From assembly GCF_018977255.1 (NCBI RefSeq), contig NW_024704743.1, forward strand, positions 24,678,001 through 24,742,000: a stretch of 64,000 nt of DNA, in the 5' to 3' direction. Under the pieces are notes generated by a model. That model was not told the DNA's origin and made no database searches. It was given only the letters and a program-made list of their open reading frames with translations. The DNA is from Callorhinchus milii (Eukaryota). Positions 4,601-64,000 of the stretch are shown in pieces. A program made the position numbers and the translations under genes. Within the stretch, counting starts at the first letter, position 1. The number at the start of each line of letters is the position of its first letter.

Positions 4601-4719
4601 AAACATGCTTGTGGAAAACAATCTGCCAAGAAGTGGTGCATTTTTCTTGCTCGCTTCAGTGGAAACATCCAGGAATGTGTGCTTACCTTACCATGAATTT
4701 GAATGTTAATACGTTGCTT

Positions 4720-4744
4720 CTAAATATTTTCTGCAATCTCCACT
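4720..4744 (-). CDS. COL6A6: Tentative final coding exon (QVEIAENI*)
   Basis: TTTCAG acceptor after a 93-nt intron; in-phase TAG at 4722-4720; no homology support. Confidence 0.35.
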
Positions 4745-16700: not shown

Positions 16701-19700
16701 AGGTTCTACCCAGTCATGGGAGGGCTTATATAGGTAGTTAATGTGGGAAACGGTTCCATTGCTTAACAGGAATATGCTATTGATGAGCACAACATTGACA
16801 ACCTCGACCCCCCCCCCCCCCCCCCACCCCAACACCACCCAAAAAAAGATTCTACATTCACAAACAAATACAATAAACTAGTAAAATGGTTTGTTACCTT
16901 TTTTCCTTTCGATCCTGGAAGGCCATAACCAGCCCTGCCTTCAAAGCCCTGTGTGAGAAATAACAGTGTATTTAGTAACATATAAAATATTTTGGTGTGG
17001 ATCAACTGCAATGTTTTAGCTCAGCACAAATTTAGCAATTTGAGGACTGAAATAGCAATAGATACCAATAACAGGTTCTCAACAGAATCACAGTAAATTT
17101 GTAATCATTTGTAATAATTCCTTAAATTCAGTTTTGTCAGATACGGCTTATGCGAGTTTTACTTTACATGTAGTTTGATAGTAAATAACAATTATCCCCA
17201 TACTCATTCAACTCAAATTGACTTATCATTTTCATATGGTTCTTTTAGACGTCTCAAAGCGCTTCACAGAATACACTGTAAATGACTGAACATTTGTGGC
17301 AGAAACGCAGTAGCCAAATGCGCACAGCAGTGTCCCACAAACAGTCATGGATTGAAATGACCAATTTATTATTTTTTTCTTGAGAGATTATTATCAGAAG
17401 TGTGGAGTAAGGAAACTCAATTCCATTGCCTGAAATCTTGGACTGTCTCCAAACCCACCCACTCTCCCTGGCAGAACAGCCACCTCCACTCCCTTAAATC
17501 CCAAATCTGTAGTCGAGTGTGGAGTAAGGAAACTTGCGCAAGATTTCCCTCTGCCAGAATCGAACCCAGGTTTCTCACCTGTGCGGGAGTGCTCTAACCA
17601 CTGAGCTACTGGACTTTTGCACAGTGGCACAACATTCACAACTCTCCAGTCCCTTGGAATACTTCCCATCTTTAAGCAATTCAGAAGTATGTCATCCACT
17701 TCAATGTTTCACTCTAACTTTGTGGTCTGGTTGCTTTTGCTTCGACTGTCTGGAATTAGGTTTTCTGCCTATCCATTTACATTCAGAAAAATAGTATTCT
17801 CTCTCAAAATGTTACGTTTGCCTCTAAACAAGTCAGAAATTACAAATGAAATATTGTGTGTCCCCTGGTAATGCTGTCCCCCTTATCGAAGCCTGCACAC
17901 CTGCCTACACTTTCCACCCCCTACCCCCTGCCCCAACTAACATGGAGGTGGGGTAACTCTCTTTTCCCAAAACTAGGGTCTACTCGCCCATTCCACTGGC
18001 TCCTTCACATCCTTTGAGTACCTCACGCTATATCATCCCTCCTTTCTCTCCTTCAAAATCCTCCTAGTCTACCAACGCCCCCCCACCCAACTACCTCCAC
18101 CAACCAACCAGCTGGCTCGCTCCTCTTAGACATCTTTTCTCTCCTCTCATCCCTCGGCCACAGCACTGATTTCGACCTTTACCTCAAATCCTCTTCTCCT
18201 CCCTAAAGCTCATCCCCCAAATAAACTCCCAACCCATAACCGTGGCCACCCCTCGACCTCATCACAACTCATGGCCTTGACATCTCAGATCTATCCATCA
18301 TGGACAAGGCCAGCTCTGCCCATTTCCTCATCTCCCTCTCCTCTTATATCCCCCTCCCCTCCTCCAAGCCTTCCATTATCTTTTTTCCTCCCTTGGAAAA
18401 AGTTTTTCCCCACCTACAAGTCCCTCACAACTGTTCTTCCTCTGGCCTTCTTCCTGCAGTGATCCTGATGCAGCTGTCAAGTTGCTAAACAATTATATCT
18501 TCTGAACCTTCAATTCCATTGCCTGAAATCTTGGACTGTCTCCAAACCCACCCACTCTCCCTGGCAGAACAGCCACCTCCACTCCCTTAAATCCCAAATC
18601 TGTACAGTCGAGCACAGATGGCACAAAACCGGCCTCACAGTTCACCGACAGCTGTGGTTCGAACATTGTCATACCCAACGTCTCTCACTCTCACAAGCCC
18701 AGAGTGGTTTTTATTCCTAGGCCATTCTGGATGCCCCAAATAATCCCAAAGTGCTGTTTTCCACCATTCAACAACAACAAATTACATTTGTATAGAGCAA
18801 AGAATTCCTAAACAACTTTGTCTTTATCACTCTCGATCCCTCGAACCTTACAAACCATTTCTGGCTTGCATTTCCTTGCTCACCATTAATCCACGAGGTC
18901 CAGTGGTCCTCTCTCACCCTTGTTGCCAGGTTCTCCAAACTGACCCTGTGAAACAATTTTACTTAGAATAAGAATAAATTGGCAATGGACACATTGTGGA
19001 AAAGACAGTGTCAATAACCTGTAAAATGTTTAGACTAAAAGCATTAACCAGGATGAACCTATAGTGTGCTCAGTTGAGAAAAACTTCCACATTCCACAGT
19101 TGAGACTTGTCATAAAAATAATAATTTTTCGCGTCACAAATATATGAGAGGCATCAACAGTGGTGCAGTCTGCAAATTAAGTCATTTCAAAAATATATTC
19201 CTTCTTATAATGGGTTAAACAAATAGCAGAAGATAACACTTACATTTGGTCCTTTTCCTCCATCGTTGCCTTTGCTCCCTTTGCGACCTGGAGCCCCAAG
19301 TCTACCCTGTCAAATGAATGACATTAAAAATCTCATTAACACTTCATGGCGCAACATTTTGTGGAGTCTCAGCACTGTGCCTGCTTGAAATGGATAGTTT
19401 TTTTTAAAAAAATTAGCCTCGGGAGCCTTCAACCTTCTTGGCCAGTTATTAGCAAAAACATAATTCTAATACTAAAAATCTACAGTTAAAAAGCTATTTT
19501 GGGGGCTAGAATGCAGAAAGCAAAATCAATTGTACAGTAAACAAAAACAATATTTCAGTTCTTAAAAGGTTAAAGTGAGGACTCGGTATCGGGAAGTGCT
19601 AGACATGTTCAGTCTCAAATATCTTGGATGTGCAGGAAATGAGCAAAGAATATGATCCCCAGTATTAGAGAAAAGAGCTATGAACAATGAATAGACAAGC

Positions 19701-22700
19701 TAGAGCTCTTCACTCTGAGAGAAGACAACTCAGAGAGGATCTCATAGATGTGCATAACATTTTAGACGAGATTTAAAAAGTCAACCCAGAACGATATTTT
19801 AGGATGTACCAAGCAGTAGAAGATGACATAGATTTAGGGTTAAATGGCAATATCAGGACAGATACCAAGATGTTTTTCTTTACACAGGTGCAATTAATGA
19901 CTGGAACAGATTTCTAGGAAGGCTGATTGCGGCCAGGACACTGCATTCATTTAAAAAAAACAGCTTGATGTTATGATGGAAAGCTGGCTGTTCTGGAGGG
20001 ATAAGATAAGATGGGGTGAAGATCCTTCTTCATCCAGACTAATCTTGGGATCTTGTGAACATGCTGTAAGGGAGCAAGGAGTCTAAATGGCTCCAGGTCT
20101 TCACATCGCATAAGATCAACCGGCTTGGGACCAACATCGAAAAGTACTGCATTATCTACAAGTTGTTGACTGCATCTGGGTCATCAACATAAAACACATC
20201 ATGTAAACAAAACCTTTTGGGGGAGGGGGGAAGCAAATTTACTGCTAAAAGCTGCCCTAGCATGTTCAATGTTTCTATTCTCTCACTAAACTATTCTCAG
20301 CAAGTGTAGAAATCAATAATTTGCTTAAGATCATCTTTCAAAGAGGGTGAATAATCTCTAAGGGCATGAGGCACTCACACTGAGTGGATCTATGCCTAAC
20401 ATTGTAATATATCAAATGAATGTACGTGAGGATTTTTATTAATAATAATAATAATCCTTGCATTTGATTTAGCGCTTTTCACGTTGGGAGGACGTCCATG
20501 TGGATTCAGGAAATTAGCCAAATGCTTTATTTTCCAAAGATACTACTGACACATAGGACAAGGGTAATGCAGTTAATATAAGTATTTGTATTTTACTAAG
20601 GCTATTAATGGCTACGGTTTGGGCAATGGTATATATAACAAACAAACAGAAACCAGAGCGCCACAATAAATGGGAACTTTTCAGATTGGAGGGAGGTTAT
20701 GAGAGAGAGAAATTCATGGGTTGGATTTAGAGAACTTACTACTTTCAATAAAATACAAGCATAATCTCCCAGTTTCTGGATGACGCTGAAATAAGATGTA
20801 CAGCAAATAATAATGAAGGAAGCAATCAGATTTTAGATTTAGACTTCTGAATGCTCTCATCTGCTGTTTAATGGGGACAAGTGCAAGATAATTAACTGTG
20901 GGATAAAGAAAACAAAAGCAAGATATTCCAACTATATCTGGCAAGTTTTATTAAATAGATAATGGGTTAATTTTTCTATCCATATATTTCCTGTGAAACA
21001 GAATGAAATCTATAGGAAATAAGGATATTTCTGCAATTTTCAAACCAAAGCAAATACATCATGTTTGATGTGCGACTGAACAAAATATTTCAGACAATTG
21101 TAAACATGTGTTCTTATACTGTATCCTACCAATTCTTTCTTCTATTTTTCAAAAGACATGTCTCAAATGTGCTTCTATGAGTGCATTTATGATCATCAAG
21201 CTGTTTGTTACATGCAGCCAGAGATGTGACCTCAGCAACCTGTACCAATAATGCCTCAAGCTGTTAATTATCTTCTAGGCAAGAAATATCTCCAGGCATC
21301 TAAACGTTTTCTTCACAACCTGTAACTTCTTGTCCTGATGCCCTCGTGTACCTCAAAATATTCTTCTGGATTTATTTAATCCCATTAGGCATTTTATATA
21401 CAATAGTACTCTGTTGTAACAAAATAGTTAGCATCCCACCTTGTAACGGGATGTGGTTTCTGGTCAGTGCATTCATAACTTGCATTTATATAACAGTCTT
21501 CCCATAGGGTAACATCTCACAGCACTTTACAAGGAAGGAGTTGGACTTTGAGCAGGGGAAAGGGAGAAGGGGAGAGGGCCTAGGTATGTTCAAAGAGGTA
21601 GGATCTGAAGCAGGATTTGAAGACTGAAAGATAAAGGGTGAGACAAAGTGGTAGAGGGGGTAAATTCCAGAGGGATTTAGACATGCTTGAAAGCGAGAAG
21701 TATCAAAGAATATGAGCAAGGGGCAGGACAGTGCAATTAAACTGTGTGGCTCACTTGGACAAAAACACCAGTGCAGAATTAATGGGCTGAGTGGCTAGTT
21801 TCTGTGCTGTCACGTACAACAGGCATGATCCAGCAACCAAGTGGTTTATCAAGATTTAAATGCACTACAAACCTGCACACCTCTGGGTCCTTGTTCTCCT
21901 TTAGGGCCTTGCTGTCCAGGGAGTCCCTCTGTGTTCTATAACAGAACAAACATGTTTCACAAATTGCTTGTAAATTTGAAAAAGTTGTTCGTTAAATGTA
22001 CTAATTTCCACTGCAAAAATTTGAGAGCATGTATTATCCACAGATCTAAAGATGTTTATCTCAATACGTTAATTAGGTAAATTGGTTCCCATTTACAAGT
22101 CCCTCAATTTAAATTTAGTGTCAGAGTCATGTGTTTCTAAACTACAATGACAATTTGTATTTGTATAGCACCTTTCACGCAGGATAGTGCCTCAGAGGGT
22201 TTAACAATGGTGGACGCCGATACTGAGTCTGGGAGAGGGAAGGTGGCAACATTAGACACAGTCCAAGAGAAAGGTCTTCAGGTGTGAATCTAAGGGGGTC
22301 AACAAGGGGAAAGGCAGAAGGATTGGGGGAGAGAGTTCCATAGTTTGGGAGCGTAGTGGTTGAATGCATGGTTGATGGGTGGAGCGGAATGGACAAGGAA
22401 GAATGCAGGAGGTTGGAACCGCTGTCATCACACCCCTCCTCAAAAAAATCACCCTCAATCACACTAATCTCTCACACTACCACCCCATTTCCAACCTACG
22501 CTTCCTTGTTAAAGTCCTGGAACACATTGTTGCAGGTCAACTTCGGACACACCTCTTCCTCCACTGCCTCCTCGAACCCCTGCAATCTGGTTTTTGCTCT
22601 GCCTACAGCACAGAGACAGCGCTTGTCAAAGTCACAAACGACATCCTCACTCTTTGTGACCAGAGATCCCTCTGCCTACTCGTCCTCCTGGATCTCTCTG

Positions 22701-25700
22701 CCGCATTCGACACAGTGGACCACGCCATCCTTCTCCACCACCTCTCCTCCCTCATCCACCTTAGTGGGACCGCGCTCGCATGGCTCGAGTCCTACTTAAC
22801 CAACCGCCTCCACTTCATCTCGGCAAATGGTCTCTCGTCCCGCTCCCACTCAGTCGCCTGTGGGGTACCCCAGGGCTCCATCCTTGGTCCCCTTCTTTTC
22901 TTCATCTATATGCTCCCTCTTGGTGATGTCATCTGCACACACGGTGCAAACCTTCACATGTATGCGGATGACACACAAATCTACTTTGCCTCCTACAGTA
23001 CCAACTTCAGGTCCACCAATGTTGTATCAGCTTGTCTGGTGGATGTCAAGGCCTGGATGAGTGTAAACTTGCTGCAGCTGAATGTAGACAAGATAGAAGT
23101 CATACTCTTTGGCACCCATCAATGGTTTCACTCCTGCAGGTCTGAACTCCTCAACCTCCCTGGGCTCTCCCTCAGACTCACCAAACCAGCACGCAATCTA
23201 GGCGCCCAGTTCGAACCCCAACTATCCTTCCTCCCCCACATCCATTCCCTGACCAGGACCGCCTTCCTCCACCTCCACTACATTGCTCACCTCCGAACGT
23301 ACCTTACTCCAAATGCAGCCAAAACCCTCGTGCATGAGTTTGTCACCTCCTGCCTGGATTATTCAAACACACTCCTCACTAGTCTACCCAGCTCCACCAT
23401 TCAAAAAAATTCAGCTCATTCAGAACTCTGCTGCCTGTATACTGACCTGTCCAAATTCCGTACCCACGTCTCACCAGTTCTAGCCAGGCTCCACATCACC
23501 AAATGGATTGACTTGCAGATCCTCACACTTGTGTTCAAATCCCTTCACTCTCTGGCACCTCCCTACCTCTCCGACCTCCTCACTCCCAAATCCACCACCC
23601 AGCGCCTCCACTTGACTGGCACCGGCCTCCTGCTCGTCCCTTGCATCCTCCGTCCCACCATCGGAGGTCACGGTTTCAGCCACTACGCCCTGAAACTCTG
23701 GAATACTCTCCCTCAATCCCTCTGCCTTACCTCCTCTCTCCCCTTTTTCAAGTTCCACCTGAAAACCTTCCTTTTCGACCATACTCATGGTCCCCCCACA
23801 CCCCCCCACCCTGTTCGGAGTCAGGCTCCGCTACTATTTAAGAGCTCGGAGATGCTACCCTGCATTGAGGGCACTATGTAAGCGCAAGGATGTTGTTGTG
23901 AATATATTTGGGATATCCTCCCAACATGAAAGGTTCCGTATAAATGTAAATTGTGTCAAGAGTGTCCAAACCAGATGGAAGGTTCCATCTATGCATGGAA
24001 ATTTCTCTGTGTCTGGAATGAAATGTGCACTCTTGTTGTATTGGCGCATGGTGGCAACCAAGGCTCTTGGAACCCCAGATTGTGCGTTGGGGTACTGCTG
24101 AAGTCTACGCAGTTAAAACCGCATAGCTTACCATTGTCTGGGTAGCTTCCTGTTGCTTGTCCAGCTAGGCCCACCCTACCCATTCAGGATAGAGTGGTGA
24201 TAGCTAGACAAATTTCACCCCAAACCTTAGTGTTATTTTTTACTTGGAGATAAAGTTGTCCTCCTGAGAAATATTTTGTGACTGTTTTACAGAACAGCAG
24301 AGTGTGCCCAAATCAGTTTGGAAAATGCGGGTTCACAGGCATTTATAGGTACTGTTTATTGCTGGTTCCTACCGCTGGGCCTTGAGGTCCTGGATCTCCT
24401 TTACGGCCTCTTTCACCAGGCTGGCCATTCTCTCCCTGAGAACAAGACACTAATGTCATTTTATAACTCAAACAGGATACACTTTATCACAATACTGAAA
24501 AAATGATTTGGTTGGCAGCATGGTTGGAATGTGGAATTTGCAGCCACGGCCATAGTTGAGGCAGAGTCCATGAATTATTTTAAAAGGGAAATAGACACAC
24601 TTGAGAATGAGAAATATTAAAGGATATGAAGAGCAAACATTTAGGCTGGGTGGCTCAGGTGGACAAAAAACAGTGCCATTTTGATGGACTGAATGGCCTC
24701 TTTCTCTGCTATAACGTACTGCTTGGTAATAATAGTAACAACACTTCTGCTTGATAGAAAAGTAAAATTTGCAGTATTTCTTAACATAGGCCCGCTTTTA
24801 ATTGGCACAGACTAAGAATGTGCTAAGCAAGAGCTGAAAAATGATTGTTTAACTAATTACTGTTGGCAACGACAACAAATTATATTTGTGAAACGCCTTT
24901 CACGTTGGGAGGACATCCAATTCCGAATAAAATCAGGAGACACTGGACATTAAAGAATAAATGGACAAAAGAGGGACAGGCATATTGCATAAACAAGAAA
25001 AAGATAAGAAGCAGTTTCAAAGAAAACAAATGTTTGGCTCTAAGAGGGCCAGTTGATCAAGATTAAAAGGACAGCTACGCATGCTGTTCAGAAATGAAGG
25101 TTGTAAAAGTTACGAGCAAAATTGAGGTACAAAAAGAAGTAGATATGCAAAACATACACTCAGCCTGCAGAGTTGTCTCAAGGTGGGACAGTGGTGATTG
25201 GAGCAATGAAAGAAAATAAAGCACATGGATAGATGAGGAAATATAGAAATTTGGAAGAAGGAGCAGAGAGAAACAGAAGAGGGGCAGAGAAAAGACAAAG
25301 AAAGAGCAATAAGAGGAAATGAAACACTGACAACATAGAATTAAAAACAAAAGCAAGGCAAAGTAAAGGACTATGAAGAGAGAAACGCAAACAATGTTAA
25401 AAATATTAGAGTGCAACATAAACACAGCAAAACATTTACATAGCACCTTTTCACGTCGGAAGGACGTCTCAAAGCACTCAACACTGCTGGCTGGACATCT
25501 GAGCTGGGGGTGGGAGCCGAGGGAGATTGGGTGGGGTCGAATGGGGAAAAGGTTACCAAAAGCGCTGTCCAAGTGTTAGGTCTTGATGTGCCTTGAAAGA
25601 GCAGAAGGAAGGATGGAAGGAAGGAGCGAGTTTGAGGGCCTCCAAGAAAGGAGCTTCAAAGATCCGGGGCAAAATAGCAATGGTGGGGCAGATGTAGCTG

Positions 25701-28700
25701 GGGGGATATGAAGCAAGCTGGAATTTGCTGTGGTTGTGTGGACAGACGTGAGCGGAGTCAGTGAGGGGCTAAGATAACGGAGGGTCTGGGGTACATGAGG
25801 AGCAGGAACAGTGAGAGAACGCAGCGCAGGAGCCTTTTTCGAGGCCGGCGGGCGATCGGTGAGTGAAGTCAGGTACGGGAGACTGGGTAACGGCTGGGCT
25901 AGGCCCAGAGGAGCTATTGTCAAATCTCCCGACTAAACCAACGGTGAAGTTCCTGGGGTTAAGGAGGTGCTAAGTAGAGTAACCGACAAAGGAAAGCCGA
26001 TAAATTACTTATTTACACTCGAATATTTAACAGTATAATAAATTAACAATAACAAATTACATTTGTAAAGCGCCTTTCATGTCAGGAGGACGTTCCAAGG
26101 CACTGGACAGTCAGGGATTTGGACCCAAGCAGGGTGTTAGGATCAGGAGTGTGGAGGGCAGGCAGGGTAGGGATAGGAGGGTGGCCATATGCAGTCGGTG
26201 AGGAGTGTCTTGAGATCGGTCTTGAAACAGACAAGGGAGGGAGCAAGGCGAAGGAACTAAGGGTTGAATGGGAAACATGGAGCAGGTTGGAGCCCCTTAA
26301 AGGGCTACTAAACAACTAAACTAAAATAATAAATAAAAAGCAAGGGCATAAATCCTAACCAGTAGCGTTAAGTAAATAAAAGTCAATAAATAAAAATAGA
26401 AAATAAATAAGTGCTGTAAAAAAAAATTAAATAAAGAATAGAAAATGGCAGCACAGGGACTGTGTCAAGACTGCAGAATGTGGGGAAATTGTGGGCAGTG
26501 AGACTGTCCCAGATGATCACATCTATGGGAATTGTCTTGAGTCACTCTGGCTCAGAGTCTTTGAGTTGCACTGCAGGTTAGAGACACTCCCACTCCTGAA
26601 GAGTATCCAAACCAAGATGAGATTTCCATGAATCCCACCTACACATGGAAATCCCAGAGATGGATTGTTGGAATGGAATTCACACTCTCTCCCGGAGAGA
26701 TGCATCCTGCTTACCTAATTCCAGAAACTATTAGACGCAGAACCAACAACATAGGAAAGAACAGGAAAGGGGTCCTGCTAAGGGAGTATCAGAAGCTAAC
26801 AGCTAAATTAAATAACAGGACATTGAGATTGGTAATCTCTGGGTTACTACCTGAGCCACATGCAAATTGGCAGAGGGATAAACAGATCAGAAACATAAAT
26901 GAGCAGTTGAAAGAGTGGTGTGGGATGGAGGAGTTCCATTTTCTGGCACCCAGGTAATAGTACTGGGACAAGAAGCAGCTGTACTGCTGGGATGGGTTAC
27001 ACCTGAACTGGGCTGGGACCAAAGTCCTAGTGGAAAGGATAAATGGAACTGTAGAAAAGGCTTTAAACCAGTAAAAGATGGGGTTGGGTGCAGGGTAGAA
27101 ATAACAGTAAACTAAAGATAAGGATGGATAAAAGCAAAGGTCAGAGCACAAAAAGTGATAAAGAAAACATACATACTCCGAGAAGAAAAAGGGTTACAGG
27201 AAATAAAAAGTATGACATGCCAAAAAGTGTGAGAAAAACACCGTCAGGGCATATAGGCAGGGGGAGGACAGTTACCCAAGTAAGTGTTCTGTATACAAAT
27301 GTACGTAGCATAAGAAATAAGATAACTTAGAAGTACACATTTAGCTTAAAGGTTATGATGTAGTAGCTATTACAGAGACCTGGCTACAAGTTGGGCATGA
27401 TTGGGAACTAAATATTTCAGGCTATAAAATCTCTGGAAAGGACATGGAAATTGGGAAAGGAGGAGGTGTAGCAATATTGACAAAATTACAGCAGTAGAAA
27501 GAAAGGATTTCAGTGAGGGGGATCAGGCTGTGGAAACACTATGGGTAGAATTAAGGAACAGCAAAGGAGGCAAGACTGGTGGGAGACAGGGTCTGTGGAG
27601 ATCAGGGAAGCATGCAGCAAAAGCAATGTGGTTATAATGGGTTATAAATGGGTTTAATTTTCACAGACTGGGAACAGCTTAAGTAGGAAAGATAACCAAT
27701 TTATGGAATGTATTCAGGACAGATTTCTGGAACAATACATTTTAGCATCGACAAGGGAACATGCCATACTAGATTTGGTGATGAGTAACAAACCAAAATT
27801 ACTTAATAATCTGACTATAAGGGAACATCTTACAAATAGTGACAATTTAACATAAGGTTTGAGAGGGAGAAAGGAGAGTCGCAAACCACGATTTTAAATT
27901 TAAGTAAAGCAAACTTCGAAGGGAGGAGAAATCAATTAACTATGGTAAACTGGGCTGAACTGTTAATGGGTAAACCCACAGACATACAGTGGGAAGTACT
28001 CAAGCAGATTTGGTACAATACAAAACCAGTACATACCCCTAAAACACAAAAGCTCCACTTGGGATAGTTCAACACTTGGGATGGTCGACAAATGAGGGAA
28101 GAGACAGCAAACTTGAAAGCAAAGGCTTACACTAATGCAAGAAAATGAAAATCCAATGGACTGGGAGACTTATAAAAAGCACCAAAGAGATACAATGAAA
28201 ATAATAAGAGGTGCAAAAAGGGAATGAGAAAAAGAACTTGCAAGGGATATCAAGGGCAACAGTAAAAGTTTTATCAATATATTAAGAGAAAGAGAGTGGT
28301 AAAGGGGAATGTGGGCCCATTAAAAACAGATGTAGGTGAGACTAATAGACGATCAGGAAACGGTACGCTTTTTGAATGAATACTTTGTTTCCGTTTTCAC
28401 AGTAAAGGAAGAGGACAGAATACCAGCGGTACAAGGGAACCTAAAAATAAGCCAAAGAGAAGTACTAAATGGATTAAGTATAAATTTTAAAAATGGAGAA
28501 AATAATGGGACTAAAGATAGACAAATCTTCAGGACCTGATGGATTTTGTCTCGGGGTATTAAAAGAAATAGGGGAGGAAATTACAGATGCATTAATCATA
28601 ATTTTCTAAAGCTCTCCACATTCAGGAATTGTGCCCTTGGATTGCAAAATTAAACGGTAAAGTGACTGAGCTCTGGGACAAGGATGAGCTAATTAAAAAT

Positions 28701-49700: not shown

Positions 49701-52700
49701 CCTAATGGATTGCAGCCAGATTCAGAACAGGTAGATCTTGTCTGACCAAGCTCAAAGGTATGTTTGAGGAGGTGACATCTCAAATTGACTCTGGAAAGCC
49801 ACAGGACACATTGTGCCTAGACTTCAAAAGTACAATTCGCAAAGTATCACACAAAAGACTCCTTCTCTGACTGTTGTTACTGCATATCAAGACAAGGATA
49901 TTAGATATAAACTGCCTGAAGGGAATGAAGTAGAGAGTAATCATCAAGGGAGCTAGGGCAAAAATGGGGTAATATATCATGCAGGGTGCCTCGAGGGTGT
50001 GTACTGGGACTCGCTAGCTCCCCTCTCGACTCTCTACCCCTCTCCTCGCTCCCTCCCTCCCTTCCCTCCCCTCACCCTGACCATTTCCCCCCTGCTCGGG
50101 TCCCGACCCAACTGTCCAGCGCCTTGGGACGTCCTCCCGACGTGAAAGGTGCTCTATAAATGAAATATTGTTGTTGTTGTGTATACATTATTGTTCCTCA
50201 CAATCAGTCTCTGACTAAAACTGCTCTACTTTACCTTCATCACATTGCGCATCTACACACATGAAATGCTGCTGAAACCCTCACTGATGCCTTTCTTAAC
50301 TCCCAACTAGACTTTTCAAATACATTGCTCTGAACCTGAACTCCAGGTAATGGCTCCTTATTTCCACCATTCATAATCTCCACCTGATCCAAAACTCAAC
50401 TGCCCAAATCCTCACCCGTACCAAACTTTGCATGTCTATCACCCCAGGCTTCACCAGGCTGCACTGGCTCCCTCTCTCCCAGTGGATCAACTTCAAAGTC
50501 TTCAGCCTTACCAATGAATTGCACATGCCCTAGCACTGCCCTACCTCTCTTATCTTCTCCTGTTCTACTGCTTCCTAATTCTGCTCATCAAACTCAAACC
50601 TGCTGTGTGTACATTCGCCTTGCGCTCCACCTTCCCCCCATCCCACCATTGGTGGCCTAGCCTTTAACTCCTACAACAATTTACACTTATATAGTGCCTT
50701 TCAAGTCAGGAGAATGTTTCAAAGTGCTTCATGCCTGACTGGATACCCTTGCTGGATGGGGGAAGCTGAAAAAGATGGGGGTGAGAAATATGACTGAAAG
50801 TACAGTCGAGGAGATGGGTCTCGAGACAAGCTTTAACAATGGCGAGAGATGAGACAAGGCTGAATGGTTGAAAGTTCAACAACTAATGGTGAGGAAGATC
50901 GGGCAAAGGACATGAAACAGGCCGGTGTTCATTGAGTGGAAGGAGCGTCCGTGTTGGTAGGGTTACAGGAGGTAGCAGAGTGATTTGAAATCAGCCCTAC
51001 TATTAAAAATGCAAAATCTATAATGTATTACTTATGTGAAATTACTGCAACCCTTTACTGAAGATTATTCTTCAATCTCAATGGTATAGAAGAATGCAGT
51101 GATGTATGCTGGTAACTATTAGTGCAATGGTCAGAACTTCCAGCCCTAATGTTCTGCCTCCAGTGGGGGTGAGGGCGGAGTGGGGTGGGAGTTGGGGGAG
51201 AGAAAAGGTTTTGCATCATTGTGGTACAACACAAATGGTACATATTCGATGACACTTTTTGTCCAATTGTTAATTATAAAATGATTTCATCAATGAGATG
51301 ATCAAGTTGCATTGTTCATCTCATGTTTATTGATGCAATTTGTTACAATGCTCTGAACTCAACTCCATTGTTTGCTCAGAGTCACATATGGCATTCCCTA
51401 TAAATATGATGGTAGAGGCTATTTTTAGTTCCCATTTCATATTTATATACAATTGTCAACATATTGGCTAAATCAAATAACTTACCAAGGTTACTTGCAT
51501 CGCAAATCAACTGAGAAATGTTTGGGGTTAAATATCTCAGGTTATCATAACGTGGAACATAAAAGTATTTATCCGATCCGGCAATTAGGTTGAGCTCTTT
51601 TAAATCAGCACCAGCAACACCGATAGCATAGATACTAACACCGTGGTCTCGGATGGATTGAGCTGTAGTTTCTAGAACAGCATTATCTGCAGCCTTTTCA
51701 TGAGTGATAAGTATAAGAATCTGTGGCACTTTGCCTGAATTTCGACCATTATATTCTGGAGCTAGAAGTTTTTTGGCATGATTGAGAGCCTTGCTCGTGT
51801 AAGTTTGTCCTTTCGTCAAATTTCCTATTGCGTTGATTTCATTTTGGACTTCAGCTTTGCTCTTCAGTTCATTCAGGTGGAAAATGGTGTGAGGATTGGT
51901 GTCATACAGTACGGCTCCAAACCGAACATTGCTCATGCCAACATCAGAACTATTCACCAATGCCACCATAAATGTTTTCACGAATTGAAACTGTTCCTTG
52001 TTTATATTAAATGATCCATCTATTACGAATATAATGTCTGCGATTTCTGCCCTTCCACAATCTGTAAATAAAAGCACAAATATCATACAAGTTGAAAGGA
52101 AAAAGACAGACATGTCATCCCTCTCCTCCCAATCCTGTTTCAAAGCATTGCCAGTGTTGAAATTATACTTTCTGCAGTCGGAAGCCTAACTATTTTTATA
52201 ATGTGTGTTTTCTCTCGCTTTCTCTTCATCTCTGTTCCATCAGATTCCATTAAAATACAGAAACCTCACCTTGTTCCATGTAGATGTGACTTGATCCCAC
52301 ACATTTGTAAATTATGTCCTATAAGTAAGCACCTAAACCGTAATATATCTCCCGGTCTCAGCCATAAGAATATTGTTGTACAATTCACTTTCATTAAGAA
52401 TGTTGGCATATTCTTACACTCTTAGCTATCAACAACAACTTGGATTTATCTAGCATCCTTCATGCAGGTAGCATCTCTAGCTGGTAGTTTTCCTCATTTC
52501 TTTCTAAGTACTGCAATGAAACAGCTTCCAGATCAACACTGAAATTAAAATAATTAAAAATTCTGGCTAATCTTAAATTTTAAGATTGGCTAAGGCTAAG
52601 AGAAATTTTAAACCTTTGAAACAAATGGTGATGATTAATCTTCCCACAGTTATAGTTTCCCCTTCTTCTCTATAAGCAACTATGTGGAATCCTATAACTC

Positions 52701-55700
52701 AGTGGTTAGAGCACTCGCCTCGCAAGCGAGTTTGATTTCTGGGTTTGATTTCTGGCAGGGCGAAACCTTGCGTAAGTTTCCTTACTCCACACCCCTGATA
52801 ATAATCACTCAAGAAGAAAAAAAAAATTGGTCATTTCAATCCACTACTGTTTGTGGGACACGCTGTGCGCAATTGGCTGCCGCATTTCGCCCACAAAGAT
52901 ACAGTCAATTCACTTTACAGTATATTCTGTGAAGCACTTTGAGACGTCTATATCAGATGCAAGGGTTATTATTTTGCATCACCAATAGCCAAACTGGCGC
53001 TATTTTTGTACATTAGCTATTAATGACAAGAGGGCCATCTTGGCTCAGTTGCCAGCACTCTCTCTTCTGAGTTACAATGTTTGGGGTTTAAACCCAGAAA
53101 TATGACGACTGATCAACTGGCATGTTTCATTTTCGGTTGGACTGAAATTAAATGTGCCAGTTGATTGGTCTGTGTTACACATTCTAGGATGTATATATTT
53201 TTTGGGTCGCATTTTTAAAAATCCAACACGATCTCTGCTCCAGAATATTTTTGCTCTTAGACTGTTGAGCTTTCCCCATAGACCCGAAAATGGACCTAAC
53301 ACCCCCAACTGTACAGAGAAAACCTGTAGACGTGGCAGGTGTGAAAATGATGGTTGGAAAGTCAGGGGGCAGAGCTTCCACCTACTGGCTGATTAGTGAT
53401 TATATAACGTTTCATCTGAATCTTTTACTGGTGTTCGCAGTTTCACACACTGCAAGGTGTAGCATTAGTTAACACTGGTATTACTTTACACCAACACTAA
53501 TTAAAGAATACCACAAACTTTATTCCAGTCTTTTCCTTTTTGTTTTAAGCAACATGATGCAGACTGCTCTGATAGCAAACAGGTGGAGAGAGGAATGTGC
53601 TGCCACAGCCAGCCATTTAGCATTAAACTTAAAACAATCGCAATTCATAATGACCTCCATGATATTATACAGCGATAATTATTGCATCCAAAGTATTATG
53701 AACCACTTGTAATTTTCTTACCCATTTCAATAAATTATCACGAGAATTATTATCTATAACAGATGTACAAGCCAGATAATTATCTTTAATTCTTAAAACA
53801 ATTTTTTCCTACCTTTGTGTGAATCGCAAATCTTGCTTAAAATGTCTGTTTTCACTTGTTCCAGAGCATCATATTCTTCAATGAAATGCACTTGATCATC
53901 AGATCCTGCGATCTCACGAAGCTGCTCCCAAGGAGATTCGGCGACACCAATGGCAAAAGTAATGATTCCTTTATCTCTTAAAGCTGTAGCAGGTGCAACA
54001 ACCGAATCCGATGAATATCCATCTGTAACCACTATGAGGTACTGTGGAACACTTAGTCGACCTCCTTTTGATCCATCAAAGTAATCTGCAGTAAATGTCA
54101 GGGCACGACCGATTTCGGTTCCCCCTTTCAAATGGTCCATTGTATTTATGCCTTGTATTAAGTCAGGTTGTGTAGAATACTCATTAAGCTTGAAGACCAG
54201 TGTAGGTTGACTTGCAAACTTTATTACACCAATTTGAACTTTATCTAATCCAATGTTGGTCTTATTCACAAAAGAGATCATGAAATGTTTTATTTTTGGA
54301 AAATCTTCATCTTTTATACTTCCTGATTCATCAATTAGGAAAATGATGTCAGCCTTGTCCAGTTTACTGCAGGCTAAAAGAAAGGAAAAGTATACATTAT
54401 AATAAAGGCACCACATTATTGCACGATGAGCCCGGATCGCCACACTTTCAAATAGCATTCTCCTGCTTTTTCTCAGTGGAATAATAGAAGGAATGGAAAA
54501 TGAACTGAACAAAAGACTGAATAGAGATAGTAGGTGAGAGAATTAGTGCACTAATGCAATTTTTATAATGCACAAACTGTGCAAATGTGCAAATCTCACT
54601 GCCTACCACAGGCTACCGAAACCCTCATACATGCCTTCATTACACTGAGGCTCGAATATGCAAACTCATTGCTTGTTGGCCTCCCCAACTCCTCCCTCTA
54701 CAGGCTGCAGATGATCCAGAATGCTCCTTGACCCTACCACCCCCGCCCTTGCCCAACTCCACTGGCTTCCTATCACACAGAGGATTCAGTTCAAGATCCT
54801 GGTCCTCACCTTCAAAGCCCTCCACGGTCTTGCTCGCCCCTACCTCTCTGACCTCCTAACCCTCCACCAACCTCTTCGCTCCCTCCGTTCTGCGGGCTCC
54901 AGCCTGCTTCGCGTCCCCTGCCTATTGGTGGGTGGGACCCGCCACTCTGCCCCCACCATCTGGAACTCAATTCCGCAGTCCCTCCGCCTTGTCCCCTCCC
55001 TTGCCACCTTCAAGACTTACCCGAAGACCCTCCTCTTCGACCGTGCTTTCGATCTCCCTGCTTGCCTCCGCTGCCCTCCACCCTCCCCCACCCTGAGCCC
55101 CAGCTTGGGTCCATAACTCTGTCTGTCCAGCACCTTGGGACGTCCTCCCGACGTGAAAGCTGCTATACAAATGTAATTTGGTTGTTGTTGTTGCCTGCAA
55201 GTAGTGCTCTGGATGATGCAAAAATTAAGGAATGGAGTGTATGCGTGTGCATGAAAACATATGCAAGGTACATTGCTTAATGAGGTCTTGAATGTTTGAC
55301 AAAATAGGCCATGTTTTTGATTATTGAAGGGCGAATGGTGATACAGGCCAACAGACTGATGGAATTTCACATAGATGACTTTACCTCTCAATTTTCTAAC
55401 CTATCACTTCTTTAATGAAGGTAAGTGGTGGGGTAAAGTTCCACAGTCACCAGCTGGCATTGCGTGCTTCACCCGTGTATCCAGGATTGGCCATTGGTAT
55501 ACTCAGGTGAGTTCTAATTATATTTGCCATTGTGTTATACTAACGCTGATCCTAAGTGCAATATAGGGGTCAGGTTCCTCCACGTGATTTTTAAGCCAAT
55601 AGTTATGTCCTGATTTCCTGCACACGCCCCAGATTCTTCTCAAATATATAACTTTCTTTTCCCCCCGAGCTTCCTGCTTCTCTTCTGAGAAGATGGGAAA

Positions 55701-58700
55701 TTGAGTGGGTAGAAGATCACCTCCAGTTTTCAGCCATGGCAGGTTCTGTGCTTGAAGTACCATCACTGTCGCTTTGTCATTGTAATAATTGCGGACCAAT
55801 GCTAAATATTGTGTGGAGGATTACATTGAATGGTTCTCTTGGCTCTACAGCTAAAGTTTCTCAGCAAGAATTGGCATGAAGCCAAAAGACTCTTTGATGC
55901 ACCCCTTATGAATAGCTGGTGATAATGATTAAAACTTTAGGCGAATCTTCAAGCAGTGAGCAAAGCAATCTCATAATTAAGCACTATTGAAGTTATAAAC
56001 TGCGAGTAAAATAATGAAAATGGGTAGAACTACAAAAACAGTCAAAGCAAATGAAAAATTATTTTTACACCATTTTTAAAAAAAAATAAAACAAAGTACA
56101 CCTCATCCACAGTCAGTCCTGCCCTGCTGAGGAATGGACTCAGGTTATTATTAATGTCTGCAGTGGCCCACGCACTCATATTTCCTTGGGGAAAGGGCAA
56201 GGAGTGGGGTGGGAGTGGGGGCGGGAAGTCTCCTGGGGGCTGAGGTGGCTCCAATGTAATATGCTTGGCAACAAAATGTTGAAATCAAGTCAATCCTCTG
56301 TGGTGGTCTCAGTAGTCTGGTTTCTGAGACCTGTGGGTCCAAAGTACAGTTGGAGATAGACTAACAAGCCTGGCTCATTGGCAGGACGTGGATTGTGGAT
56401 TGGTAGACTAACCAGTGAGAGCAGAAAATTCTTCCCACTCTACTTTTGTTATCTCTATGCTATTGGGTAGAATGGTTCTATATGGACAGGTAGTGGGAAG
56501 CTTGGCAGACAATCCTCTCGATGGCAGATTTAGCTGTTTGAAATCCGGGGGTCCCAGAGTGTGTGTTGGGTACTGATGGACTTCAAACATCTAAATCTGC
56601 CATTGAGAGCATTGTCAAGACTGGCTCTCAAGACTCTGCACCTAATGCTCTCCAGGATTAGGTAAGCAGGGTGGGTCCCTATGAGGGAGAAAGTGTGCAT
56701 TACATACCAAACAAAGGGAAATACCCAAGTGCATTTAATAATAATAATCCTTGCATTTGATATAGTGCCTAGTCACATCTTCGAGACATTTCAAAGCACT
56801 TCACAGAATATACTGTAAAGTGAATTGACTGTATATTTTGTGAGTAAAACGCAGCAGCCAATTGCTTACAGCAGTGTCCCACAAACAATCGTGGATTGAA
56901 GTGACCAATATGTAATTTTTAAAATTATTATTTTGTTCAAGGAATTATTACCCCTGGACAAGCAATCCACTAATCGACTAACAAACGGGTTCCTACTTAC
57001 TGCTAGGTAAATAGAGGCATGTGGAGTAAGAAAACTTGCCCAACATGTCGCCCTGCCGGGAATCAAACCCAGGTCGCTTGTTTGCAAGGCGAGCACTCGA
57101 ACCACTGAGCTACAGGACTCCACATCAACAACAACAACACGATTCCATTTATAGAGCGCCTTTCACATCGGGAGGACGTCCCAAGGCGCTGTACAGTTGG
57201 GTCAGGACCCGAGCATCGGGGGGAAATGGTCAGGGTGAGGGGAGGGAAGGGAGGGAGCGAGGAGGGGATAGAGAGTTGAGAGGGGAGCTGAAGGCACGGT
57301 CAAAGAGAAAGGTCTTGAGACCGGCCTTGAAGGAGGAAAGGGAGGAGGCGGCGAAGGCACTGGGGGATAGAGCTCCAGAGCCTCGAGGCTGAGAGGCTGA
57401 AGGCCCGGCCACCGATTGTAGGGCGGTTGGGGCGGGGGATGTGGAGCAGACCGGAGCCAGAGGAACGGAGGGTACGGGCAGGTAAGTAGGGGGATAGTAG
57501 GTCAGAGAGGTAGGAGGGAGCAAGGCCGTGGATGGCCTTGTAGGTGAGGATGAGGATCTTGAATTTGATCCTCTGGGGGATAGGGAGCCAGATGTTTTTG
57601 GCATACATATGTGAAATCCTCAGTTAGGTTTGGATACTCGTAAGTATGATGATTCAATTTCTGCATATGACAAGACACGCGGTTGACCAAATAAAATTCA
57701 AGAAAGTTGATCGCTTTGAGTTAATATTATCATCTAACCTTCTTTGGAACAGATGTCCTGCACGATCTGGGGTTTCAAATCTTTCAGGATATCAAAATTA
57801 GTTATGTTGAATACTCTTTCGGGAGCATCTCCAATCTCGTTTAGTTGAGTGATGTTTATATTACCCACACCTACAGCGTACATAACAATTCCTTCTTTTC
57901 TTAATTCTTCAGCAGGATACTTTACATTATCATGTGCCTCTCCATCTGTAACAATGATCAGGAAGCGTCGTACTCTACTGTTGCGACTTTTTTCTGCTTC
58001 ACTGAAGAGATTTTTCATGTACTTCAGTGCTCTTCCTGTATAAGTATCTCCCCCAGCTTGTGTAATTTGACCAATTGCCGACTCCACCTTTGTGACACTG
58101 GTATATTCAGTGGCGGTAAATGCTGTTCGTGGTGCATTGCATACATGGCAACGCTAGTCCGGACCTTTTTTGGTCCAATATGGAATGTCTTCACTATGTC
58201 ATTCATGAATGTTTTGATGTAAATGAAGTCAGCAGGTTGTATACTGGATGATTCATCAATCAGGAAAAAGATGTCGGCTTCTTCAGTCTCTGCACAGCCT
58301 GAAGAGAAAAAGTGACATGGCTTCAATCACTGAAATCAACCATCTGCATACCATCTTATCTCACATTGCAACAAGCTCTTTCTTTAAAATCCATTATTTC
58401 TGACAGAGGGTAAAAATAAAAAAGTTCAAATAAACAAATAAAAGAAATTTATCTGGGCATCATGGAGCCCAAGGTTGAATTCAGGCTATCTGGCTTAATA
58501 AGTGGAAAAAAATAAGCCAAGTCTCTGCTTCTGATCACAATATAGGGATCCTTCCAGTAAAGTGCTAGTGTAGACATAAAAGAATAGGATCAGGTTTTCC
58601 TGTAGTGCCTACGTGTTGGAAATAACTGAGCCGATAGGATGGGGGAGGTGACTGTAAGCACGTAAGTAAGAAGAGGAAGATCTTCAGGCATGAGTTGAAG

Positions 58701-61700
58701 ATGGGGAAGGAGGGTAGCAAGCCGGAGGGATTGAGGGAGAGTGTTCCAAAGCTTCAGGGCGTAGCAGCTGAAAGCATGACCACTGATGGTGAGATGGAAG
58801 GCACAAGGGACAAGCAGGAGGCCGGAGCCAGTCAGTAGAGGCAAAGGGCGGTGGGTTGGGGAGTAAGCAGGTTGGAGAGGTAGGGAGGTTTCAGGGCATG
58901 AAGGTATTTTGAAGACTAGTGCGAGGAGCTTGAAATCGATCCGTTCGGTAATAGTGAACCAGTGAAGCCTGGCAAGAACTGGTGATGGGGGTACGGAGTT
59001 TAGTGTGAGCGAATATGTGGGTGGCGGAGTTTTTGATTAACTGGATCTTGTGCATTATGGAGCTGGGGAGACCAGTGAGGAAGGCATTTGAGTAGAAAAA
59101 CAGGAGGGGAGGGACTTCCAAATTTACATTTATATAGAGTCCTTCAAGGACATCCCAAGGCTCTTTAAATACAGTATTTATAGTTATTTGTTGTAATAGA
59201 GTCATGATTACATTGTTTTAGTACATTTAATAGCTTTATTACTAACGTATTCAGATAGTCACTATAATGTCACTAAAAATGAGATGAAAATGTGTTTTTT
59301 AAGAAAAGAAATTTGATCAGCCAGGGAAGATTGGAATTTTTAAGTGTAAAACATTTAAATTTCTTTCTCAGATATCTTTTATTTATTTCAATTTGTTTAT
59401 TTACTTATTCCTTTTAATTGCGTCAGTGTATTTTGTCTCAGTTATCATCCAGGCATGTCACCGGACGTCAGATTAGGTTAGGTACACAATTCAGTGTTAA
59501 CACTCCAGTATAATGATAATAATAATCCTTGCATTTGATATAGCACCTTATCACATCATCGAGAATATACTGTTGTAAAGTGGATTCACTGTGTATTCTG
59601 TGGGCAAAACGTGGTAGCCAGTTGCCCACAACAATGTCCCACATTATCATGGAATAAGTGACCAATTTTATTTGGGGGATTGTTAGCCAGGACACCTGGA
59701 GAAATTCCCTTCACTTTTCAAATAGTGCCATGGGATCTTTAATGTCTACCTGAACAGGTCGATGGAGCCTCAGTTAATCTCTCATCCGAAGGACAGATGA
59801 GAATAACTAGCATCACAATTCAGAAATCTATTCATAAACCTGTTAAAAAGTTACTTGGAGGAGCGCAGATGGTTTAAATTGTGAAATCAGAGCTGAGATT
59901 ATAATTAATGTCACTCCATTAATGAAGAGATTTACATTTCATTCGCTTCCCCCTCCTTCCAATCTCCTCCATCACCTCCCCCAACCCACCCCCCCCCCCC
60001 CCCCCCCCCGCCACTAGCGCCATAAAATTCACTTTACACAATCTCACAAGTAATATTTGGACAGAAATCTTGTCCATGTCAGGACTGGGACCTGTTAACC
60101 ACAAAGGAAGCAAGTTGCGTTCTAGGTTTCAATCTTCCCGGACTCTACAATCTTTTATTGCTCATACCACACAGGACATTAAAGTTAAACCATTTTTAAG
60201 TTCACTTGTTTACTGTTAATGTTACTAAACAGGTAACTATGCCAATCATTGTTATGCTTTCATTAAACTAGCGTAATTTCGTTAAACAATCGAGTACAAG
60301 GAATAAATTATAACTGTTAAGTCTGAGAGTCTGCAAATTTTCTTATAAACCATTCAGTCAAAGAAATGTAGATGTCATTAAATATACAAACCGCACCTTC
60401 TTTAAGCTTTGCACTTTGTTGAGGTATAATGGAAATCCTTTTGATGATTTCATAGCAAAGTTTCTTCTGGAATTCCTCCTTAATTTTGTCTAACAATTCA
60501 AACTGTCTACGCGGGAGACAAATCTGCGTAATGGATGAGAGGCAATATTGTTCAGTTCAGTTTGACTGGCATTCTTGATCCCTAAAGCGAACACAACAAC
60601 ACCCTTATCTCTAAGTTCAATCGCTGGTTTGGTTACATCATCGTCCGACGTTCCGTCAGTGATCACAATTGCAATCTGAGGGATTCCTTGATTTGCTCGA
60701 CTGACTGAGCTTTTTGTAAAGTAATTGTCTTTCATATAGTGTATGGCTTTCCCTATGGCAGTGTTTCCTTTCCTGAAAGGGAATGTTTTTACCTGTTTAA
60801 GGATGTCATTCTTGTTTTGATTTGACCGAAAAGTGATCTCTTGTGATTCGCCATCGTTGTAATGGATTAAACCAATCCTCACCTTTTGTGCACCCACATT
60901 CAGGTTACGAATAATATTAGAGAGAAAATTACGGACAAGTTCAAAATGTGTTTCTCCGATGCTCGTGGATCCGACTACTAGGAAAACAATATCAGCAATC
61001 GGTGCATCTTGCACACTGTAAAACACACAAGCCAAATACAAATTTATGAGCTGCAGTAGAAATATTTTCCAGAATAATACTAAAACAGACTTTAAAAGGA
61101 GAAATAACACCAAAATAGTAGGAATAAAAAATGCAGCAAGTGATATAATAATTGTCTCCAGTGCTAATTATCAGATTGCGACATTCCATGTCTAAAGATG
61201 TTTCCATTCACAAATACTACAAGGATCATCTCCCCTGAGTTCATTCATGTTTCTCCCAAAAGCCACTTACTGGAGTCCTGTAGCTCAGTGGTAAGAGCAC
61301 TCGCTTTGCAAGTGAGAGACCTGAGTTCAATTCCAGGCAGGTCAGGGCGAAACCTTGGGCAAGTTTCCTTACTCCACACAGAGACTAATAATAATCCCTC
61401 CAAAACCAAAAACAATAATAAATTGGTCATTTTCAATCTACGACTGTTTGTGGGACATTGCTGTGCGCAATTGGCTGCCGCGTTCGCCCACAAATATACA
61501 GTCAATTCACTTTACAGTGTGTTTTGTGAAGCGCTTTGGGACGTCCGCCTGACGTGAAAAGCGCTATATCAGATGCAAGGATTATTATTATTATTATTAT
61601 TATATTACTGCAGCTTTACAGCCACGTGGACACTCTAATCCTGCCAACCATGCAGATCCTAGATATTTGTCTGTTCAGAGAATACCAGCTTTGAAAAGAA

Positions 61701-63943: not shown

Positions 63944-64000
63944 CTGTCAATTTTAAATAATAAGAGTTAATTTTTAATTCTTAAGCTTTTAAATAGTCAG

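Follow-up and report, generated by a model that had tools for sequence, protein, structure and literature searches.

Does the broken reading frame of a collagen VI long-chain gene in the reference genome of the elephant shark, Callorhinchus milii, reflect loss of the gene, or errors in the assembly? The gene lies on the minus strand of the window (the 64,000-nucleotide stretch of contig NW_024704743.1 analyzed here), and a preliminary description, made from the letters alone, had offered both pseudogenization and assembly error as readings of four single-base deletions in it. We are highly confident that this is an ordinary long-chain gene, intact and spliced in other data. Other sequences from the species carry the missing bases, so that the four gaps are almost certainly absent from its gene and are likely assembly errors, probably at places where differing alleles were merged. 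Of the two initial readings, assembly error is borne out by the extra base in sequencing runs at three sites and by the read-through of a protein model at the fourth, and the pseudogene reading is not.

Exon Layout and Reading Frame

The window contains 35 coding exons of the gene (Table 1), with the 5′ end beyond position 64000; each of the 34 introns ends in AG and begins with GT (31) or GC (3). The encoded chain comprises, in order, the VWA domains N7 to N1, the triple helix, C1, C2, and a short tail. The tandem N-terminal VWA array numbers seven domains in the window and is collinear with that of a paralog (P0102) and with the 2,280-aa shark chains, while C1 and C2 are recognized as two Pfam VWA stretches in the protein model P0101, and their exons are intact. 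The helix is 336 residues long (335–336 residues being the length given for collagen VI long chains; PMC10049728) and aligns without gaps to those of relatives; two family-wide interruptions and a single Cys are present in all 14 rows aligned (14 of 16 proteins were used, the other two being left out as their helix ends were not recognized by the pattern). From what is known of the family, this chain would take the place of alpha3 in the alpha1/alpha2/long-chain trimers that make up beaded microfibrils, and its assembly with alpha1 and alpha2 and entry into microfibrils are predicted by analogy (PMC4777857).

The minus strand of the window does contain all the frame breaks reported in the preliminary description, in exons of 619, 560, and 62 nt (61015-60397, 58298-57739, and 18945-18884), each with AG/GT ends. 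The single N was also correctly located, at 6705, a position within an intron. The 35 exons, joined unrepaired, meet a first stop at codon 214, and filling the gaps in order shifts it to codons 377, 500, and 1621. Among all 16 combinations tried, the frame is open to its end only when one base is supplied at each of the four sites, giving 2,186 codons with one stop; the rest of this frame is stop-free.

Table 1. Features of the collagen VI long-chain gene, in window positions (P, protein model; X, public run).
Feature	Position	Strand	Remarks
Collagen VI long-chain gene, Callorhinchus milii	4720..63943	-	Exact matches to P0001, P0002, P0101, P0014; exon list; open frame
N7 VWA exon, 606 nt	63338..63943	-	Intact
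N6 VWA exon, 619 nt in window	60397..61015	-	Needs two more bases for whole codons
N5 VWA exon, 560 nt in window	57739..58298	-	One base short
N4, N3, N2, and most of N1 exons	44847..54373	-	Intact
N4-to-N1 exon ends	54373-53813, 52061-51486, 48435-47878, 45687-45344, 44925-44847	-	
Triple-helix exons, 27-93 nt each	11902..41456	-	
Helix exon, 62 nt in window	18884..18945	-	
C1 and C2 VWA exons	5982..10469	-	Intact: 10469-9979, 6976-6877, 6653-5982
Last coding exon	4692..4744	-	Stop codon at 4722-4720
Single N in intron	6705		Between T run and A run; uninformative on coding frame
Gap 1	61007..61011	-	X1, X2: one more base, Lys codon; older protein models: Gln
Gap 2, variable site	60502..60503	-	X1 and older models Lys; X2, X5, X10 Arg
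Gap 3, variable site	58136..58137	-	X1 and older models Thr; X2, X5 Asp
Gap 4	near 18901-18903	-	P0101 reads through with Leu-Gly; basis, one protein model

The Missing Bases in Other Data From the Species

The C. milii protein models compared with the window are P0002 (XP_007887976.1), P0101 (XP_007887977.1), and P0001 (A0A4W3GBD9), which are the older models, together with P0021 (A0A4W3GBL4) and P0014 (XP_042188233.1), also from RefSeq/UniRef. Each represents part of the chain only, and they are identical to the window except at the four sites, at one Ser/Asn change, and in model-specific exon choices. None of the three older models contains an X; P0001 and P0002 continue across the three 5′ sites, and P0101 across the helix site. 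P0014 starts past gap 3 and extends to gap 4, where it is cut exactly at the window's break, and 942 of 942 residues are identical to the window.

Contigs from public runs were compared over positions 51300-61250, a stretch that holds the three 5′ gaps and lies outside the helix exon. The extra base was found at 60502/3 in four of four runs (X1, X2, X5, X10), at 58136/7 in all three runs with listed pieces covering the site (X1, X2, X5), and at 61007 in both intron-covering runs (X1, X2); the runs carrying these bases come from three studies, and, as a check on strand handling, contigs on both strands agree. Among the contigs listed at the three 5′ sites, which keep one allele per place and drop rare alleles, none has the short form of the window; a true null allele in the one animal behind the window could thus escape this comparison of contigs. 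In X5, contig 24 is a single spliced piece across four 5′ exons (N4 and N3 included) with the extra bases present, and its alignment ends at 61008, so that it gives no match to the short form at gap 1. Contig 15 of X10 joins two of these four exons, the listed pieces of this run covering neither gap 1 nor gap 3. Since no run is recorded as RNA, X5 and X10 count as transcript data solely by virtue of contigs that skip the introns, and the spliced in-frame contigs cover the four 5′ exons only. Reads or transcripts with the extra base, which the preliminary description had named as the observation that would refute pseudogenization, are in this way present at the three 5′ sites, in the form of contigs, and a fixed pseudogene is refuted for those sites.

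The residues that had been guessed for the four sites fared less well: Lys at the first agrees with X1 and X2 (Gln in the older models), but the supposed Ser near 60500-60502 is Lys or Arg, the Asn near 58137-58138 is Thr or Asp, and the Thr near 18904-18906 is Leu in the older protein model. The missing bases conceal real protein variants (Lys/Arg, Thr/Asp, and Gln/Lys), and the truncated current model XP_042188233.1, at 947 aa, falls short of the chain, which has at least 2,186 residues.

How the Gaps May Have Arisen

At gaps 2 and 3, two alleles occur among the runs, and the window retains only the letters that both share: at gap 2 it is without the middle base of either allele, and at gap 3 it has only the letters common to the Thr and Asp codons, with no shortened run. 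This pattern fits the merged-haplotype artifact of PMC5632298, which describes assembler-introduced indels in merged regions at nucleotides differing between haplotypes. The sequenced animal would have been heterozygous at the gap sites, and a consensus step merging its two alleles may have dropped the disputed base. The missing base, whose presence in independent data is a mark of this artifact, was found at all four sites (at the helix site, in a protein model). Among the single-base gaps in 51300-61250, two of four fall directly on variable sites, one is tied to variation via the Gln/Lys protein difference, and one is not; the chance of at least two of four gaps lying within one base of the ∼20 variable sites in 7,915 covered bases is ∼3e-4, a rough figure that assumes random placement. 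As evidence against the dropping of alleles, the window agrees with all or some of the covering runs at 18 other substitution sites, and most variable sites were therefore not dropped. Gaps in 51300-61250 are commoner in exons (three of four) than in introns, but not significantly so (P ∼ 0.08).

If long reads had simply shortened runs, with no part played by heterozygosity, the main verdict would be the same and only the cause would differ; we regard this as possible, if rather unlikely. For each of gaps 1, 2, and 4, one more base in a run of 2–3 nt would close the gap, the intronic gap at 53222 (CC in the window versus CCC, with one allele only, in X1 and X2) looks like a plain run error, and short indels from CLR consensus are described as the commonest assembly error (10.1101/2020.05.22.110833). 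However, neither allele makes gap 3 a run, the long runs of these exons have kept their length (there are no other exon gaps in 51300-61250), and the placement of two of the four gaps at sites of disagreement among runs, with a third at the Gln/Lys difference, is far above chance. The earlier proposal that every gap is a shortened run of 2–3 nt accordingly holds at three sites and fails at 58136-58137, a site at which no run is made longer by either of the observed alleles. Within the artifact reading, run shortening accounts for roughly a quarter of the weight.

With the gaps read as assembly errors, probably at merged alleles, no gene has been lost and the biological import is small. For this reference, single-base gaps can fall on variable sites, outside homopolymers, and clustered in one gene, and pseudogene calls in this genome that are founded on frameshifts only therefore need a read check.

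Constraint, Relatives, and Known Systems

Helix Gly losses and incomplete MIDAS motifs had initially been cited in favor of real relaxation. Both are present in the window (3 of 110 helix Gly substituted; 3 of 6 MIDAS motifs kept, with only the first half, DxSxS, scored), but both states lie inside the range of shark relatives, in a comparison for which the helix of P0163 was extracted only in part. Seven of the eight variable exon sites alter the protein (51300-61250, public runs), with P = 0.035 against a half-and-half expectation and 0.34 against a neutral one. The N4-N2 branch length is 0.51 for the chain versus 0.22 for its duplicate, and protein branch lengths are about twofold above those of the C. 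milii duplicates, yet within the elasmobranch range. At the 3′ end, the stop (4722-4720) lies in an AG..GT stretch, 53 nt long, whose counterpart in the alignment with relatives is the linker preceding their Kunitz domain, and P0101 and P0021 end at the same stop. This C-terminal domain is kept in 22 of 24 elasmobranch chains, whereas the elephant-shark chain stops before it; P0101 has no Pfam Kunitz match, and a Kunitz profile search of the window, up to its left end, was empty. The gene might be pictured as alive and as a fast-changing, holocephalan-specific chain from which a nonsense change removed the Kunitz domain, and which perhaps doubled its N-terminal VWA block independently (as some sharks did) and carries amino-acid-changing VWA alleles at intron-like density, the false frameshifts then marking relaxed or balancing selection; we offer this tentatively, and consider it doubtful.

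The apparently loose constraint (the amino-acid-changing sites and the long N4-N2 branch) would also suit a real loss-of-function allele that segregates and was caught by the assembly, the gene being intact in most animals and a decaying null haplotype in some, and contigs prove presence, not absence. This is very improbable: the age implied by four deletions would bring stops, insertions, and broken splice sites too, of which there are none in the 35 exons; deletions would not be expected on sites that vary among intact alleles; and elsewhere in the exons the window has ordinary alleles that also occur in X2, X5, or X10. We give equally little credence to the two alleles being near-identical copies of the gene that the assembly collapsed into one, with the gaps as differences between copies. 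Family duplicates occur often in cartilaginous fish and contig depth gives no copy number, but each run has one contig per site, the variants are distributed among runs like ordinary polymorphism (introns included), and the known upstream duplicate block is just 48–70% identical in protein, too distant to collapse.

On C1-C2, the elasmobranch long chains (e.g., Heptranchias P0188, Scyliorhinus P0216/P0223, and Hemiscyllium P0205, ∼2,280 aa; forms of 1,324 aa and 3,430 aa also occur in this clade) are the sister group of the elephant-shark chain (100/100). They share with it the seven N-terminal VWA domains, the 336-residue helix, the two C-terminal VWA domains, and similar Gly/MIDAS decay, although identity across N7-N1 is only 43–49%. 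As to whether the chain is the one-to-one ortholog of COL6A4, COL6A5, or COL6A6, the 32 cartilaginous-fish rows all fall into a single group (99/93), separate from the bony-vertebrate rows, in a midpoint-rooted 57-row tree that has one long-branch row and in which mammalian rows labeled alpha4 or alpha6 are absent; a first tree used 48 of 56 proteins (six left out for a short match and two for a spurious match). A literature search on elephant-shark collagen VI gave no paper naming the species among the matches listed, which is not proof that none is in print.

The preferred reading, assembly error at merged alleles, resembles the case in PMC5632298 in that indels at haplotype-differing nucleotides break genes that are intact; that case concerns an early FALCON version and a hummingbird, with data not shown, and the window is likened to it by its gap pattern. 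The precedent first named for this locus was human COL6A4, likewise a long collagen VI chain, whose loss is tolerated in humans and goes back to an inversion on chromosome 3 (PMC4777857, PMC10049728). A fixed pseudogene of that kind has a negligible probability here: only the window itself and P0014, which mirrors it, together with the three Gly substitutions and the incomplete MIDAS motifs, speak for it, and against it stand the extra base in every run bridging a tested site, spliced contigs included, the read-through of the gaps by the older models, and Gly and MIDAS states inside the range of relatives. A unitary pseudogene would have fixed disabling lesions and no in-frame spliced transcript, whereas runs of three studies and the older models have the long form, and the spliced contigs of X5 and X10 carry the extra bases in the four 5′ exons. 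Human COL6A4 is not a valid parallel for this locus; the elephant-shark gene has no fixed lesion and yields spliced in-frame contigs.

Reading frame of the gene and its missing bases

A protein search with one VWA exon matched proteins named Callorhinchus milii at 100% identity, identifying a collagen VI long-chain gene on the minus strand of the window. The chain is already annotated. When C. milii proteins were walked along the window, 35 coding exons were located from 63943 to 4720 (minus strand), encoding seven N-terminal VWA domains (N7 to N1), a triple helix followed by two VWA domains at the C-terminal side (C1 and C2), and a short tail. GC donors occur in three of the 34 introns (47877, 44846, and 39691, minus strand), exceeding the roughly 1% usual in vertebrates, and one intronic LINE fragment has a stop-free stretch of 501 residues, recognized from translation as reverse-transcriptase type.

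The preliminary description placed four single-base frame breaks in exons of 619, 560, and 62 nt; the analysis locates them at 61007 and 60502/3 (N6), 58136/7 (N5), and ∼18901-18903 (helix). These exons have the lengths described, with AG/GT ends, and the breaks are borne out: joined unmodified, the exons run into a first stop at codon 214, and among the 16 combinations of sites receiving an unknown base, only filling all four keeps the frame open throughout, giving 2,186 codons with a single stop. The three 5′ sites are bridged in frame by two C. milii models of this gene, P0001 (UniRef A0A4W3GBD9) and P0002 (XP_007887976.1), and the helix site by a third, P0101 (XP_007887977.1); none contains X residues, and judging by the accession series all three probably derive from an earlier assembly. 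The model P0014 (XP_042188233.1, on a 125.6-Mb contig) mirrors the window, starting after the third break and ending a few residues past the fourth.

Part of 57700-61100 is present in 12 of the 24 public sequencing runs listed. Four of these runs, from three studies (X1, X2, X5, and X10) and all in the form of contigs, were aligned over 51300-61250. One extra base occurs at 60502/3 in all four runs, at 58136/7 in each of the three whose listed pieces span the site, and at 61007 in both intron-covering runs; alignment of a spliced X5 contig ends at 61008, seven bases before the exon end, which suggests that it too departs from the window's form. X5 contig 24 is a single 3,461-nt piece across four exons with introns absent, and X10 contig 15 joins two of these; in-frame spliced RNA therefore exists for this four-exon 5′ part of the gene.

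Both a pseudogene and an assembly error had been proposed. The former is rejected, given the extra base in all bridging runs, the older models that read through, and the spliced contigs; the latter gains from the missing base being present in runs at the three 5′ sites, with read-through by models at all four. This is almost certainly no real pseudogene, but an annotated long chain broken by assembly error.

Features of the gene and its introns (window positions)
Feature	Position	Strand	Remark
Amino-acid-changing sites	51575, 51877, 54287, 58136/7, 60502/3, 60566, 61007		52027 silent
LINE retrotransposon fragment, intronic	31943-34918	+	recognized from translation
LINE retrotransposon fragment, intronic	22376-23878	+	recognized from translation
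LINE retrotransposon fragment, intronic	15170-15976	-	recognized from translation
LINE retrotransposon fragment, intronic	8270-8990		recognized from translation
Micro-exon, 15 nt	10598-10584		Cys-Cys pair, just 5′ of C1
Single N, intronic	6705		T run one side, A run other
53-nt AG..GT stretch with in-frame stop	4744-4692	-	aligns with linker before Kunitz of relatives

How the bases may have been lost

At 60502/3, X1 and the older models have Lys, vs. Arg in X2, X5, and X10; at 58136/7, X1 and the older models have Thr, vs. Asp in X2 and X5; at 61007, the runs have Lys, vs. Gln in the older models. Opposite-strand contigs agree at 60502 and 61007, so mishandled strands in the alignment do not explain the differences between runs. 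At 60502/3 and 58136/7, the window retains exactly the letters common to both alleles. The assembler may have merged two differing haplotypes and dropped from the consensus the base disputed between alleles, and the bases were probably lost in this way. A passage of PMC5632298 mentions assembler-introduced indels in merged haplotypes, at nucleotides differing between them (data not shown there).

Over the 7,915 bases under the main X1 and X2 contigs, single-base gaps number four: three in exons, plus that at 53222, where just one allele was observed. A 4-base gap lies at 52419, and substitutions fall at 18 sites once five of the 23 rows, located in repeat piles, are set aside; in unique sequence of this span, no row has an extra base in the window relative to the runs. 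The chance of at least two of the four gaps lying no more than 1 nt from a variable site is, roughly, 3e-4. However, most variable sites are retained in the window, which counts against haplotype merging. Plain errors in short runs, the account first favored, are an unlikely source, and this account fails at 58136/7, where neither allele lengthens a run. At intronic 52419 and 53222, X1 and X2 are longer than the window by 4 bases and 1 base; these are likely further assembly gaps or alleles. The N at 6705 could be an unresolved variable base.

Constraint on the chain and its two ends

Helix Gly losses and incomplete MIDAS (VWA metal-site) motifs, previously read as relaxation, are indeed present, but are not a special sign of it, since relatives show like values. 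Helix Gly is changed in three of 110 conserved columns, vs. 0-4 in 13 relatives and 0-3 in a second set of 20 (five with three); the helix Cys and both family-wide interruptions are retained. The DxSxS half of MIDAS is complete in three of the six domains N7-N2, compared with two or three of six in five similarly built shark chains and five of six in the C. milii paralog; for the alpha3 chain, a passage of PMC3220584 gives one complete MIDAS among N9-N1. The C1-C2 branch is 0.38 vs. 0.18 for the paralog (elasmobranch range ∼0.16-0.49), and the N4-N2 branch 0.51 vs. 0.22 for its duplicate. In small numbers from collapsed contigs, seven of eight variable exon sites (four VWA exons, 51486-61015) change the protein, and variable-site density is similar in exons (0.26-0.30%) and introns (0.21%). 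Some loosening of constraint is possible.

At the 3′ end, the stop at 4722-4720 (minus strand) terminates both P0101 and another model of this gene, P0021. A Kunitz domain occurs in 22 of 24 elasmobranch sister-clade proteins (20 by Kunitz pattern, two more by Pfam), and a Kunitz profile search of the window gave no match. Sequence comparison makes loss by a lineage-specific nonsense change likely; a Kunitz exon beyond the window is possible.

At the 5′ end, P0001 (residues 1-198) and P0002 (residues 1-629) join to the gene an upstream duplicate VWA block (48-70% identical), beyond 64000. The window's N4-N2 and this block are sisters (99/97), and the 3,430-aa chains of sharks carry a VWA block doubled independently, so the join may be real. 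The X5 contig extends only ∼206 nt past the N7 exon (by subtraction), too short to settle it.

Place in the collagen VI family

In a midpoint-rooted C1-C2 tree (57 rows, without mammalian alpha4 or alpha6 rows), the sister group of the chain comprises 23 elasmobranch rows (100/100), including 1,324-, 2,280-, and 3,430-aa forms. A second cartilaginous-fish group is headed by the 2,781-aa C. milii paralog, and all 32 rows from cartilaginous fish together separate from bony-vertebrate rows (99/93). The ∼1,324-aa form, found in sharks and rays (P0022, P0024, P0032, P0035, and P0037), has N7 and N1 as its sole domains from the signal peptide to the helix. Judged from sequence, the C. milii chain resembles alpha4/alpha5/alpha6 by build, and no one-to-one orthologue name is assignable; zebrafish long chains are likewise placed by C1-C2 trees in a section of PMC6934817. 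Human COL6A4 was lost by inversion, according to passages of PMC4777857 and PMC10049728, an event different from the C. milii frame breaks.
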